DNA of 17,274 nucleotides from a virus (Duplodnaviria > Heunggongvirae > Uroviricota > Caudoviricetes), in IMG/VR virus record IMGVR_UViG_2802429232_000009. One strand, written 5' to 3'. Below, in pieces: positions 1-5,078 of the stretch; position 1 is the stretch's first letter; each line of letters starts with the position of its first letter. A model generated the notes under the pieces. It was not told where the DNA came from, did not search any database, and worked only from the letters and a program-made list of their open reading frames with translations. The position numbers and the translations under genes were made by a program.

Positions 1-1152
1 CTAATTAGAACAGTCAAACCAATTGCTAATTACAGTTTCAAACTTGTGAGTAACTTGCCACCATAAATAATTTTCTAGGACAAATTGTTTTCCGTGATGG
101 GCAATACTAAGTAAATCAGGATTGTTAAGTGTTTTTTCTATATCCACAGCAATCGTTTCTGGTGTCATCGGCTCTTGCAGGTGATAGCCAGTATCTTTAT
201 CTTTTACAAATTCTATCATTCCACCTCGAGTACTCACCAGTACAGGTTTACCTGCGCTCATAGCTTCTATTGCCACCATACAAAATGGCTCCTGAAATTG
301 AGATGGAATAACAACTAAATCAGCCAAAGAATAATAGCGATGCATTTCCTCAGGAGCGACACCTCCTAACATATGGCAGTGTGAACCTAGTTGTTTTGCT
401 AATTCTCGAATTTTCTGTTGGTAAATTCCTTTTTCCCCCTTACTTTTGCTCGCATAATCCCCTATAACAACCAGTTCTATATCATCACGGGTTCTGATGA
501 GTAGTTCAAACGCCTGTAAAAGTAACATCAATCCTTTTTCAGGAGATATTCTTCCCGCATAAAATACAATCTTCTTTTCAGGGGGTATGTTCAGTTCAGA
601 ACTGTTGATTTTTACATGGTGCTTATCCGTATTATATGGATCTGTTCCATTTGGGACTATAGCGATATCTGCATCAGGAAGAAACCCCTGATAATAGTCT
701 TTTAAATAGTTACTGGGGACGAGCATTTTGACATTATCATCCATTCCTTTTGGCTCATAAGCGTTATGCATATGCATCACTATTTTTGCATGAGGTGAAC
801 GCTCACGAATCTGGCGATATAATTTCATGCTATTATGTACAACGATTACACTGTTATCCGTAATATTGAAATCGTTAGCGATATTCAAAATTCGTTGAGA
901 ATAAGGCAGGGGATCTATACGCGTCAATTTCTGAAATATGCGTTTATAAATTCGACTGAACCCGATGCGATGAATTGAGCATCGTTCACTGACAGTGGTG
1001 ATATCAGAATAACCTTCTTCTTTTATACAAACAATTCTATTCGGTATTCTTGTCATCTTAGCAACCTGATAAATCCAGGTTTCTACAGCAGCTGCGCAAC
1101 GTGGAGGAATGGAAAAAATTGGCGTAACAGTGAAAATTATTTTATCAACCAT
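1..1152 (-). CDS. Glycosyltransferase, GT-B fold, family 4-like (383 aa, complete)
   Basis: ATG at 1152..1150 preceded by an AAAGGA Shine-Dalgarno; stop TAG at 3..1. The C-terminal half carries the GT4-type EX7E region (VVIPSQFQEPFCMVAIEAMSAGKPVLVSTRGGMIEF). Markedly more AT-rich than the tail genes by eye. Specific sugar and acceptor not determinable. Confidence 0.8.
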   Translation of the reverse strand: MVDKIIFTVTPIFSIPPRCAAAVETWIYQVAKMTRIPNRIVCIKEEGYSDITTVSERCSIHRIGFSRIYKRIFQKLTRIDPLPYSQRILNIANDFNITDNSVIVVHNSMKLYRQIRERSPHAKIVMHMHNAYEPKGMDDNVKMLVPSNYLKDYYQGFLPDADIAIVPNGTDPYNTDKHHVKINSSELNIPPEKKIVFYAGRISPEKGLMLLLQAFELLIRTRDDIELVVIGDYASKSKGEKGIYQQKIRELAKQLGSHCHMLGGVAPEEMHRYYSLADLVVIPSQFQEPFCMVAIEAMSAGKPVLVSTRGGMIEFVKDKDTGYHLQEPMTPETIAVDIEKTLNNPDLLSIAHHGKQFVLENYLWWQVTHKFETVISNWFDCSN

Positions 1153-1638
1153 GACGTATTATCCTTTCTATTGTTATTTTGCGTTATTGAATTTTTATAA
1201 GCAAATGAGGAATCAGTGTATATGCATAGTATGTGAATGTTATCCTACTTAAGCCTCTATCTTTATGGTGTGCCAGCGGCAACGTGTTATCTGACTCATT
1301 TTTATTAGTGATAACCTTACTTTTCCAGAGGAGTGAGATAGTAAACACGCTGTTTCCTCGCATCGTCTATGAGGGTATCAAAAGGACAAACTATATTTGA
1401 AGTGATTTATAACGCAATATATTTATGTTTAAAAATCACTTTTTATTCTTCGCGTGAATGTTTTGTTTGGGACAATATTTTTTATAAATATGTTATAGTC
1501 TAATTCTATATAGCCAAGCGGAATAATTCTCCATTTTCGGTCAGACCTTTCGGGGTAAGGCGCAGAAGCCATTTTCTCTGTCTGACTGTGCTTGCACCGG
1601 GGAGGTGTCCGTATAGGCTATTTAGCGTATATAAGGAA

Positions 1639-1655
1639 CCGGGCATTGTGCCCGG
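1639..1655 (-). terminator. Perfect hairpin (CCGGGCA-TTG-TGCCCGG) 6 nt past the last tail-operon stop; candidate operon-end terminator
   Basis: 7-bp perfect stem with 3-nt loop read directly. On the minus-strand RNA it is followed by UUCCUUAUAU, only moderately U-rich, so termination efficiency is uncertain. Confidence 0.4.
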
Positions 1656-1661
1656 TGTGAT

Positions 1662-2117
1662 TTAAGGATGGGATTGCCAGCTACTTACTAAGGCATACAA
1701 GTGATTTGGTGAGTATCGCCAGCTATCTTTTAATTGCAGGAATTCAGCACAAAATTCACTGCAAAACAGGCGATCGCACTGTTCTTTATTGCCGGTGATA
1801 ATTCCTAAGGCTCCGCGCCAGTCGTATTTTTTGCCATCATGTTTATGGAAAAACGTTTCCACGTCCTGAAGGCAGGCCTGGAGCGGCAGCATATCCCACT
1901 TATCTGGCGGTAAAGGCATTATCTTTCCCCGAACGCCGCGATCGCGTAGTGATGCAGAGTAACAAAGGTAACTCTTTTCACCATGCTTAACGGCTAATTC
2001 ACAGTGGGAATAACTACCACGTGTCACTTTACGGGTAAACCAGTCAGCCAGTCGGGCAATACCACGGTGCTCTGTTCGGCCCTTATAACAAGCGAGCCAG
2101 ACAGTGGTTTTACTCAT
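1662..2117 (-). CDS. Hypothetical protein (151 aa), last gene of the tail operon; function unknown
   Basis: ATG at 2117..2115 overlaps the TGA of the upstream Tfa gene (ATGA overlap), implying translational coupling. Contains several Cys/His (WLACYKG, YSHCEL, CSEFCAEF) but no family I can name with confidence. Confidence 0.6.
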   Translation of the reverse strand: MSKTTVWLACYKGRTEHRGIARLADWFTRKVTRGSYSHCELAVKHGEKSYLCYSASLRDRGVRGKIMPLPPDKWDMLPLQACLQDVETFFHKHDGKKYDWRGALGIITGNKEQCDRLFCSEFCAEFLQLKDSWRYSPNHLYALVSSWQSHP

Positions 2118-2821
2118 GGTTGCCAGCCTGTGGAGTAATCGTAGTCGAGCACCGCCTGAATATCGTCCAGTGCTTCCACCGCCGCGATATGGTGCTGAGC
2201 GTTGGCGAATAAGCGCATATCGTGATCCATTGTTACCGATTCAAACTGGGCGGCGATTTCGTTGGTTAACTCGATCAGACCGTTATTTTTAGTTTTCCAC
2301 ATTAAACCTGGTGGAATTTTTTTCTCCGCTCCCATTTTTGTGAGTGAGATCTGTTGAATTCGGCTGTTTGTATCACTGTGGAAGTGATGGTCGTTGATGA
2401 TGATGTAGTTGGTTGTGATGGTATCGCGTTGATTTTTGATTGCAGAGTATTTCGCCTCTTTAGCATCGGTTATAGATGGTTGCCATTTTTCACCATCCCA
2501 ACGTTCAAAAGAACCTGATGGGGCAATGATGGTGACAGTTTCAGGTAATTGACCCAATTCTTGAATAATAAGCTGGCTACCATCAACTTTGTTATAAACA
2601 GTTTGCCCGCGATGATCTTCAATGTGCTCCCATTTTTCATTCACCCAAACAGGAGTAAAACCTGAAACCTTTTCGGGTGGTGAATTTAATGTGCAATGAT
2701 TTGGCAAACCTGTATTAGGTGCAATGTATGCATCAGACTCACCGATATATTCTTGGGTGTCTTGTGAAAAATTATAAACAGTCAGTATTTGAGCTTCATC
2801 GGAAAATGTAAAAGTATTCAT
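2114..2821 (-). CDS. Tail fiber assembly protein / chaperone (Tfa, Mu U / P2 G family), 235 aa
   Basis: Immediately downstream of the tail fiber gene with an ATGA start/stop overlap at 2818..2821. The N-terminal region has the Tfa-type pattern ([17 protein letters not shown] ... [10 protein letters not shown] ... WDGEKWQ); the C-terminal 100 aa are divergent. GAGG Shine-Dalgarno present. Confidence 0.8.
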
Positions 2822-4443
2822 GCTAGCCTCACAATATAATTGAATGCGATATTTTTAACGGTGTTTTCGGTATTGCCGGTATTATTAATGGTTATAGAGT
2901 GATTATGGGCCCCAAGTGGAATTGAATGTGAATGGGTACCAATTGAAAGTTCATGTGTATGGCTACCCAATGCGATAGTATGTGCATGGGTACCAATGGC
3001 TGTAGTATGAGAGTGATCACCTACTGCATCGGTATTAACAAAATCATAACGAGAGTCACCGATAGAATCAGCGGTTAGTGCATTGCCACCGTAATCAGCA
3101 TCACCTTTACATGTTATTTGATGTGAATGGCCACCTGTGCTGGTCGACGATTTACTTCCGTGATTGAACGACGATGTTGTCTTAGAGCCAAGATCAGAGG
3201 CAGATACCGTTTTGTTTCCAAAATCAAAAGATGATGTTGCTTTTGTCCCTAAATCCGTACTAGAAATACTGCCCGTATGGTTGTGCGATTTAACCCCATC
3301 CAGTTCAGTAGATAATATATTACGCCCACTGCTGGTTTTCCCTTTAATTATCCATCCACGCATATCAGGGATGACGCCAGACGGATATGCAATTGCCAGT
3401 TTGGGATATGAGGCTTTATTAAATGTCTGACCTGTCATCAGGGCGTAGCCAGAAGGTACAGAATCAGACGGCCAAGGAATAGGCATCCCTACAGGGCAGC
3501 TTTCCGCAGCACTAGCCTTATCATACGCCGCCTTCACCGCACTCGGCGTAGCCGCCTCCGTCGTACTGTTGCTATCCGTCGCATTACTAAGCTTCACAAT
3601 CCCTTTTTGTGTCAGGGTGCCGTCCGGAATACCCGTAATCTGCCCCCAGGGGTGTGTATGACTACCCGCAGCCTTACCGTTCGCCAGGTCATACGCCGCC
3701 TTCACCGCGCTCGGTGTCGCCGCCTCTGTCGTGCTGGTGCTATTGGTCGCATTATTAAGCTTCACAATCCCTTTTTGCGTCAGCGTACCATCCGGTATAT
3801 CAGTAATCTGACTCCAGGTATGACGATGATTTCGAGCCTCAATCATTGCCGCTTTCACCGCTTTTGGCGTAGCCGCTTTGGTTTCGTCATCACTGTCAGT
3901 GGCGTTACTTAACTGCGTAAAGCCTTTTTGCGATAACGTAGCATCAGGGTGATTAGTCGAACGTTCATGTTCATCCAGTTGCGAATCAACATAATCCCGT
4001 GTTGCCAGCACAATACTGGGATCAACGGTGAGCGTTACCGCTGCCGTATTGGAAACTTCCATAATGAGACGAATGCAAACTTGCTTACCGCTGCCGCCGG
4101 GTAATAGCGGTTTATACGACTCCGGGAATTTACCGATAGCAATGAGTTCACCATCGGTATCAAAAACACCGACTTCACGTACATACCAGCCGCCGATATT
4201 TTCTGGCAGTACAAGTTCCGCAATTAACCAGTTAGGATTATTAGGCGCAACTGTTAATGTATTTAAATCACCGCGCCATACTTCATGGCGTAATTTAGTT
4301 TGGCTGACGGTGGGTTCATAATATTGCCCTCCGCTGTCGCCAACAGCCATTTTTTGTAGATGAAGCTGTTTTTTATCCGCCAGGGCATTGGCAATTTTTG
4401 CCATCCCTCTGTCAGTGAGTAGAGTATAAAACTCATTATCCAT
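2818..4443 (-). CDS. Tail fiber protein (541 aa): P2 gpH / Mu S-like N-terminus, tandem repeats, His-x-His-rich C-terminal tip
   Basis: The N-terminal block ([21 protein letters not shown] ... [29 protein letters not shown] ... ATPKAVKAA) is the conserved tail-fiber N-terminal domain of P2/Mu/lambda-type fibers. Three copies of the TLTQKG-x-VKLSNAT...[13 protein letters not shown] repeat follow. The C-terminus has six HxH motifs (HSH, HSH, HAH, HTH, HSH, HNH). GGAG Shine-Dalgarno; ATG at 4443. Confidence 0.9.
3514..3945 (-). repeat. In-frame tandem direct repeats of about 168 bp (56 codons) inside the tail fiber gene; two well-conserved copies plus one degenerate copy
   Basis: The 20-mer tcatacgccgccttcaccgc occurs at 3521 and again at 3690 (period about 168 bp), with long near-identical tracts between them. 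The third, degenerate copy is around 3846..3945. Confidence 0.8.
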
Positions 4444-4445
4444 AA

Positions 4446-5078
4446 TTACTCCGGGTAAATATATGTAATTTCAAGGCTCCATTGCCCTGCTCCGTAATAG
4501 ATTGATGTGTTTTGCTGTACTTCCCGTATCTGGAAAGGTAAAACCGTCGTCAGTTCACCACCATAAAGCGCACAGCCAATAACAGGAATAGCACTTTGGT
4601 TAATGATCCAGACGATTAATGCTTCCAGTTTTGAACGTGTATTTTTATATTCATGAATGAGTTCTACCAGATTATTGAAAAGGTTTTCATCCATGCCTTT
4701 ATCCACCAGCTCTATATCAACCTTAAAAAAATAAGCCTTTCCCTCATATTCAAACCATTCTGAAATAGTTCCTGGTAGAGAAAGTATTTCCAGTACCCGC
4801 CGTACCGCCCAAATCGTTCCTTTATATTTATGCAGCTCAATGGCTTGCTTAATTAACTCTCGCTTCTCCCGTTCATCAGTGGTAAATAACCAACCTTCCA
4901 GCCCCTGAACGTGAAATTGTTCTGCAAGGGCAGGTAATGCCGAAGCATCAACTAGGTCTACCAGATAAACCATCAACGCCGTCAGATCGAGTTGGGCAAA
5001 ACGCTCGGCGGCGATATTTGCCAGAGTTGAAAAACGCTCATCGCTGGCAAGCGGCGGTGGCGGCAGCAATTTATCCAT
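4446..5078 (-). CDS. Baseplate/tail protein, P2 gpI / Mu gp48-like (about 210 aa)
   Basis: Position between the gpJ-like and tail fiber genes. I prefer the ATG at 5078..5076 (GGAG Shine-Dalgarno 9 nt upstream; overlaps the TAA of the upstream gene) over the TTG at 5093 used in the ORF track. Confidence 0.75.

Follow-up and report, generated by a model that had tools for sequence, protein, structure and literature searches.

Hundreds of phages and tail-like bacteriocins of Proteobacteria have tail-fibre cassettes that end in the gene that we call ORF X, and its product is very probably a Cys-His acyl hydrolase or transferase. The gene was found near one end of a virus-assigned stretch of DNA (IMG/VR record IMGVR_UViG_2802429232_000009, source contig PTRD01000020.1), the full 17,274 nucleotides of which are referred to here as the window. 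We infer that the enzyme is made late, acts on a conserved acyl substrate of the envelope and aids the release, dispersal or action of the particles, a reading whose chances we regard as about even. The regular linkage of ORF X to fibre cassettes, of which we found no description in the literature searched, is the interesting and testable part.

The gene and the tail cluster that it ends

The window is a head-less contractile-tail cluster of the Mu/P2 type. Its order begins with the Mor activator, holin, SLT transglycosylase, a 104-aa membrane/coiled-coil protein, Gp37, sheath, tube, tail chaperone and tape measure, and continues with gpU-, X-, D-, V-, W-, J- and I-like proteins, the fibre, its chaperone and ORF X. 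The features at the ORF X end are listed below in window coordinates.

1..1152, minus strand: GT4 'LPS N-acetylglucosaminyltransferase', AT-rich, in the variable cargo slot between ORF X and yjbD
1638..1656, minus strand: G+C-rich hairpin of 8 bp, terminator-like end of the tail operon (-14.2 kcal/mol, z=-3.5)
1662..2117, minus strand: ORF X, 151 aa, predicted stand-alone permuted NlpC/P60 (YiiX-like) Cys-His enzyme, PHROG 1128
2114..2117, minus strand: ATGA stop/start overlap of the Tfa gene and ORF X (translational coupling)
2114..2821, minus strand: tail-fibre assembly chaperone (Tfa), 235 aa, with a Caudo_TAP N-terminal part and DUF4376
2818..4443, minus strand: tail fibre, 541 aa, with Phage_tail_fib, fibre repeats, Collar and an HxH-repeat tip; first gene of the cassette

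The product of the gene at 2114..2821 is a tail-fibre assembly chaperone because it carries the DUF4376 and Caudo_TAP domains; neither of them was matched in ORF X. The ATG of ORF X (2115-2117) overlaps the TGA stop (2114-2116) of this upstream gene, and the junction on the minus strand reads ...GGCAACCATGAGTAAA... The original prediction was right about this overlap, leaving out only the strand, and also in proposing that ORF X is made with the fibre proteins, to which the stop/start overlap, the shared operon and the hairpin right after the stop codon all point. The hairpin begins 6 nt past the stop (5 intervening bases) and is followed by UCCUUAUAUA; it was not among the sites of a consensus terminator scan. 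Homology to E. coli begins at 1639, inside the hairpin. A promoter consensus scan of positions 1100-2900 returned one weak site, against 5.5 expected by chance, which was located at the 5' end of the Tfa gene, and no candidate immediately 5' of ORF X.

The exact ORF X protein is on record as WP_105280719.1 under 'unclassified Escherichia'. Neither a signal peptide nor a lipobox or TM segment is present in it, and its N-terminus is free of a hydrophobic h-region; it is cytoplasmic until lysis and coupled to the late genes. Compared with Escherichia relatives, the dN/dS of ORF X was 0.07-0.11, and that of the chaperone gene was similar. ORF X is thus under strong purifying selection (dN/dS about 0.1), and this, together with its thousands of homologues, makes it a real gene and rules out a spurious ORF.

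In E. coli MS 21-1 (L001, L024), the same element fills the interval between lysC and yjbD, in which no capsid, terminase, integrase or transposase genes were found in the stretch that makes up the element. Since the interval holds no capsid, terminase or integrase genes, the element looks like a tailocin. The sheath gene and the fibre/ORF X region, counted separately, each occurred in 196 of the 5,426 complete genomes of E. coli. No publication on this lysC-yjbD element was found in the literature searched, and a Burkholderia tailocin paper contained nothing relevant to ORF X. As a minor observation, the Mor and holin genes of MS 21-1 are separated by a ClbS/DfsB-family gene and an ISEc53 transposase (L024 5897-7654). 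An Escherichia-type tail cluster with 93-98% protein identity was also seen under the label 'MAG: Bacillota bacterium' (L007, JAEZCC010000043.1), where it is probably a binning contaminant.

ORF X had been considered possible cargo. It is instead a constant and strongly conserved component at the end of fibre cassettes across many unrelated tails, and the variable slot lies beyond it. In the window, the slot holds the GT4 gene (37.7% GC), which scores 675 bits against NCBIfam NF012028 (PRK15484), also matches PF20706 ('GT4 in conflict systems') and is separated from the end of the tail cluster by a spacer (1153-1637). By GC content, ORF X (47%) groups with the fibre (47%) and the chaperone (42%), and the content beyond it varies; we therefore place the fixed end of the fibre cassette at ORF X and the cargo slot after it. 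This slot behaves like a hotspot, for cargo or of the defence-island type, where the tail cluster ends.

Several side observations were made at this end of the cluster. A nucleotidyltransferase and a slipin pseudogene occupy the slot in E. coli MS 21-1 (L001 4086-6010), and a nucleotidyltransferase and RtcB occupy that in Phytobacter massiliensis (L008 10493-12527). The tip of the window fibre, at its C-terminus (2818-3000), carries HxH repeats, in which we see a likeness to the metal-binding ones in tips of the T4 gp37/gp12 type. In Phytobacter, the fibre (557 aa, L008 8256-9929) differs in its C-terminal part and is not accompanied by a separate chaperone gene; it is followed, after a gap of 71 nt, by an ORF X homologue of 76% identity.

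Fold, active site and family

The description of ORF X as unknown no longer applies, as homologues were found in about 2,000 to 4,600 protein clusters (50% identity). That it belongs to no recognised tail structural family was borne out in Pfam and NCBIfam, neither of which gave a match, and PADLOC matched 0 families; the protein does match PHROG 1128 (E=2.6e-56, residues 1-148). An alignment of 42 homologues (31-93% identity) had 14 invariant positions, including Tyr36-Ser37-His38, Glu40, Gly61-Val62-Arg63, Lys65, Tyr98 and Cys119-Ser120. The profile of these 42 sequences matched the Bacillus cereus 'cysteine peptidase' 3kw0 at E=8e-5 and E. coli YiiX (2if6) at E=0.22, and its S-H and C-S-E motifs aligned with both. 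When ORF X was compared by hhalign with the single YiiX sequence, the probability was just 14.8%; Foldseek against the PDB returned nothing significant, and a single-sequence search of PDB sequences gave a chance SPRY match only. The codons of the residues discussed below are as follows.

1761..1763, minus strand: Cys119, putative catalytic Cys at the start of helix 119-126, invariant C-S motif
1824..1826, minus strand: Tyr98, invariant, aligned with the YiiX active-site tyrosine, G-K-x-Y-D motif
1998..2000, minus strand: Glu40, invariant, candidate substitute for the third triad residue
2004..2006, minus strand: His38, putative catalytic His, invariant Y-S-H motif

ORF X has the papain-like alpha+beta fold of permuted NlpC/P60 enzymes, with the His before the Cys and the Cys at the N-terminus of a helix. 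His38 lies in strand 36-45 and helix 119-126 starts with Cys119; the two residues are invariant in the 42 sequences, and F-C-S-E surrounds Cys119 in nearly all members of the family. According to Xu et al., a Cys, a His and a tyrosine make up the active site of the group together with a third residue that is polar (Glu64), and among the S1' residues are the Ser that precedes the His and an Asp that precedes G-V-R (PMC3142127). At the aligned positions ORF X has Cys119, His38, Tyr98, Ser37 and Asp59. The invariant Tyr98 would be the active-site tyrosine, as suggested by its alignment with that of the YiiX G-K-P-Y-D motif. A polar third residue is absent from ORF X: with G-V-R as the anchor, the Glu64 position is taken by Ala55, and mostly by Ser in the homologues. 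The invariant Glu40 may substitute for it, and in PPPDE1 and LRAT the third triad residue can be dispensable (PMC3142127).

The Cys and His residues had been thought to indicate an enzyme or a metal-binding chaperone. The enzyme stands; the metal-binding chaperone is unsupported because, in the alignments, His38, Cys119 and Tyr98 fall on catalytic residues of the permuted NlpC/P60 hydrolases, and we dropped the metal-binding reading for a catalytic dyad. Among the residues that were named, Cys10 and the CSEFCAEF cluster (119-126) are correct and His39 is wrong, the histidine being residue 38 and residue 39 a Cys. A lipoprotein reading of 'WLAC' (residues 7-10) was also rejected, as there is no h-region and Cys10 is not conserved, being replaced by Phe, Leu and others in homologues; residues 6-12 form a core beta-strand. 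ORF X has neither the lipobox signal peptide nor the membrane segments of Cor/Llp-type exclusion lipoproteins.

Within the permuted NlpC/P60 group, we class ORF X as a sister family of YiiX/YaeF and not as C92 in the Pfam sense, since it does not reach the gathering threshold of PF05708 (Peptidase_C92), which YiiX passes, and since YiiX has a signal peptide and ORF X has none. As a positive control YiiX scored 167.8 bits against PF05708, whereas only 1 of the 42 ORF X homologues matched it (E=0.073). YiiX and BcPPNE (3kw0) are YaeF/YiiX-like permuted NlpC/P60 proteins (PF05708 / MEROPS C92) of about 185-215 aa with a third residue of the Glu64 type, and YiiX is exported. In comparison, ORF X is shorter (151 aa), phage-borne and fibre-linked, and has the invariant Glu40 instead of a Glu64-type residue. 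The tail module of lambda also has a papain-like NlpC/P60 enzyme, gpK, but this type is canonical, non-permuted, fused to JAB and part of tail-tip assembly, whereas ORF X is permuted and stand-alone. An ORF X homologue and gpK coexist in a lambda-like siphovirus (L020).

Distribution and linkage to fibre cassettes

A word-indexed search found 60 homologues of ORF X at E<=1e-3, and an exhaustive profile search of 50%-identity clusters found 4,637 at E<=1e-3 and 1,990 at E<=1e-10. Nearly all of the 150 matches listed were stand-alone proteins of 132-187 aa, and ten longer relatives showed no additional Pfam domain that would point to a fusion. Related stretches were confirmed in three scans of IMG/VR (475, at least 524 and 367), and a genome scan with the single ORF X protein gave 10 loci. 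Three divergent queries, run against 50,697 deposited phage genomes, returned the same 25 records, namely Moraxella, Pasteurella, Haemophilus SuMu, Salmonella, Pseudomonas, Ralstonia jumbo and Acidovorax phages. With V22 gp28, a more distant member, as the query, 47 records were added (P2-like Ralstonia phages, Vibrio, Alteromonas and Alishewanella). A megablast of the ORF X region against the deposited phage genomes gave no match. The named hosts were Proteobacteria throughout, and the carriers include many temperate phages as well as virulent and jumbo phages.

ORF X belongs to a large, mislabelled phage family, of which a few members are already annotated as permuted NlpC/P60. The authors of phage V22 annotated gp28 as 'permuted papain-like amidase' (PMC7289586), so the fold had already been assigned for relatives of ORF X. 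Both V22 gp28 and ORF26 of Ralstonia phage RSA1 are members of PHROG 1128, and they share the gene order fibre-chaperone-X with the window, including the stop/start overlap. They are about 21-29% identical to ORF X, and the homology of gp28 is indicated by hhalign (96.4%, E=1.3e-9), although gp28 has Gly in the place of Glu40. The two differ from the head-less tail cluster of the window in that V22 is a virulent phage and RSA1 a complete P2-like one. Under the 'enoyl-CoA hydratase' label we found no literature on the family, and the main text of the SuMu virion proteomics paper mentions neither the homologous gp51 nor the 'enoyl' label.

A same-strand ORF preceded ORF X in all 261 loci with upstream sequence, and the two overlapped by 1, 4 or 8 nt in 184 of the 261 (70%). 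When the homologues were clustered at 60% identity (n=53), the upstream ORF overlapped ORF X or ended <=30 nt before its start in 49 of the 53. The upstream proteins are mostly of 110-260 aa and usually are fibre chaperones. Tfa-type PHROGs among them were 2837 (in 14), 1807 (13), 8258 (7), 105 (5) and 188 (4), and the remaining neighbours were PHROGs of unknown function and a few podovirus fibres or tailspikes. As to the co-occurrence with this particular type of Tfa, which the original prediction had proposed to check, the upstream gene usually encodes a fibre chaperone, but DUF4376 occurs in only 13 of 51 diverse upstream neighbours. A dependence on DUF4376 chaperones specifically was rejected, since other chaperone families, or none, occur. 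The order fibre, chaperone, ORF X was seen in six different settings.

Mu-like SuMu: fibre, chaperone, ORF X
P2-like RSA1 and a metagenomic P2-like phage: ORF X between the chaperone and the sheath gene
Lambda-like siphovirus (L020): fibre, chaperone, ORF X after the J protein
Moraxella and Pasteurella siphoviruses: fibre, chaperone, ORF X
Pseudomonas phage pAN: fibre, chaperone, ORF X
Virulent Alteromonas myovirus V22: fibre, chaperone, ORF X

The Ralstonia jumbo phages have the gene outside a recognisable fibre context. Downstream of ORF X the genes are varied (DNA methylases, sheath, endolysins, holins and others), and in 15 of 50 cases the downstream gene is on the opposite strand. In distant relatives, ORF X was 45-51% identical, while the sheath reached 27-35% and the tube 24-27%, which makes ORF X the most conserved of the tail proteins compared, far above fibres and chaperones. 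A YiiX-type Cys-His enzyme is thus a regular last gene of fibre cassettes in proteobacterial tails of the myo-, sipho- and podovirus types, and the same pattern is found in an Escherichia tail-only element.

Possible roles

Those members of the permuted branch that have been characterised work on ester or amide bonds of fatty acyl groups and not on peptidoglycan; YiiX has a bound fatty acid, and Tox-Act1 and TseH have phospholipase activity (PMC3142127, PMC12994826). In the YiiX-like enzymes, lipid substrates are suggested by a narrow, hydrophobic S1 pocket for a fatty acyl chain. TseH (6v98), Tox-Act1, the LRAT/PLAAT acyltransferases and MARTX RID share the permuted NlpC/P60 core and the Cys-His dyad with ORF X, and in these proteins the dyad works via an acyl-enzyme on lipid acyl groups (PMC12994826). 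We suggest that ORF X, as a late gene of the head-less Mu/P2-type cluster, would appear along with the fibres, its timing being theirs because its translation is coupled to the fibre chaperone. His38 of the YSH motif would activate Cys119, at the helix start in the FCSE motif, Tyr98 would stabilise the carbonyl, and an acyl-thioester intermediate would be formed and then hydrolysed or transferred. The substrate would be a conserved acyl-linked component of the proteobacterial envelope, of the phospholipid, lipoprotein or lipid A type, and its cleavage or modification late in particle production would promote the release or dispersal of the particles. ORF X would then neither fold the fibre nor protect the producer.

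The high conservation of ORF X and its persistence in Phytobacter behind a different tip indicate that its substrate is likely to be conserved and not the hypervariable fibre tip. The gene is maintained by purifying selection in an element reduced to tails, from which all that does not serve to make, release or use them has been lost. Against an envelope or release role, however, the position of the gene next to the fibre, instead of in the lysis cassette, is left unexplained, and the Ala55 at the Glu64 position, the miss of the C92 model, the empty Foldseek search of the PDB, the low hhalign probability with YiiX and the export of YiiX, compared with none for ORF X, also speak against the reading as a whole. 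With its presence in 196 of 5,426 complete genomes, the tailocin-like locus of E. coli provides a simple genetic system in which to look for the physiological substrate.

Perhaps ORF X is instead a maturation factor of the fibre or its chaperone, as the original prediction had also suggested, which modifies or processes the fibre tip, removes a chaperone cap or serves as a second chaperone. The tight and widely kept coupling to the chaperone gene, the lower GC content shared with the fibre cassette and the maintenance of ORF X, Tfa and the fibre 3' end as a conserved block in some E. coli genomes (91.5% over 1639-2940) would fit with this. However, neither fibres nor chaperones come near ORF X in conservation, and the gene is found after members of several unrelated chaperone families as well as after podovirus fibres and tailspikes. 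It also persists in Phytobacter next to a fibre with no separate chaperone, and the Ralstonia jumbo phages keep the gene away from fibre genes. Furthermore, the V22 fibre needs only its DUF4376 chaperone to bind host cells, although gp28 is a homologue of ORF X (PMC7289586, PMC10579305), and this weakens a folding role. We therefore consider maturation unlikely. For retargeted tailocins and fibre swaps, it matters whether ORF X must travel with the fibre and the chaperone.

Self-protection or superinfection exclusion, in which ORF X would alter the receptor of the producer, was another proposal, and it now appears quite improbable. Genes of the cor, llp and P2 Z/fun type sit after fibre genes and encode membrane or lipoprotein exclusion factors expressed from the prophage. 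P2 Z/fun, phi80/N15 Cor and T5 Llp thus share the genomic position of ORF X after fibre or receptor-binding genes; moreover, many ORF X carriers are temperate and PHROG files the family under 'moron'. The likeness is positional only, as ORF X is predicted to be a soluble enzyme, with a core beta-strand at residues 6-12 and neither a signal peptide nor a lipobox or TM segment. Its expression is tied to the late operon, and the consensus scan detected no promoter of its own, so that the protein would be missing from uninduced sister cells; this speaks against protection of the producer. ORF X is also highly conserved across hosts with different receptors, the family occurs in virulent and jumbo phages, and PADLOC gave no match. 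The GT4 LPS enzyme beside an LPS-type fibre is a better candidate than ORF X for receptor modification or self-protection.

Equally doubtful is a particle-borne or co-released effector that, in the manner of TseH and Tox-Act1 of the T6SS, would attack lipids in the envelope of the target. ORF X shows no variable region for docking or packaging, one and the same small protein goes with myo-, sipho- and podovirus tails, there is no adjacent immunity gene in the window, and the main text of the SuMu virion paper put no proteomic detection on record. There is also a slight chance that ORF X is the payload of a contractile tail or a co-released lipid-targeting weapon against membrane lipids or lipoproteins of the target cell, or that it strips acyl chains from receptor-bearing debris and so spares the particles. 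If this were true, tailocins and many phages would carry an unnoticed lipid-directed activity tied to their fibres.

A papain-like isopeptidase with an anti-defence function, which would remove ubiquitin-like or other modifiers from tail proteins, is highly improbable. The enoyl-CoA hydratase or carnitine racemase-like metabolic gene of the database label, a name found in PHROG 1128 and in some records of GenBank and RefSeq, has, like a spurious ORF, practically no chance of being correct: crotonases have a different fold, ECH domains and a subunit of about 250 aa, whereas ORF X has 151 aa, a papain-like fold and no crotonase-family (ECH) match in Pfam or NCBIfam, and the label is refuted by the fold and family searches. 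The family gene is present in the RefSeq records NC_048847.1, NC_009382.1, NC_025115.1, NC_049432.1 and NC_041911.1, and 'permuted papain-like amidase' is also the label given by the GenBank submitters of V22. In BFVD, an 821-aa 'Cysteine peptidase' of an uncultured myovirus (A0A8S5PP64) has a distant C92-like domain and may be a fusion of this type of enzyme to a large phage protein.
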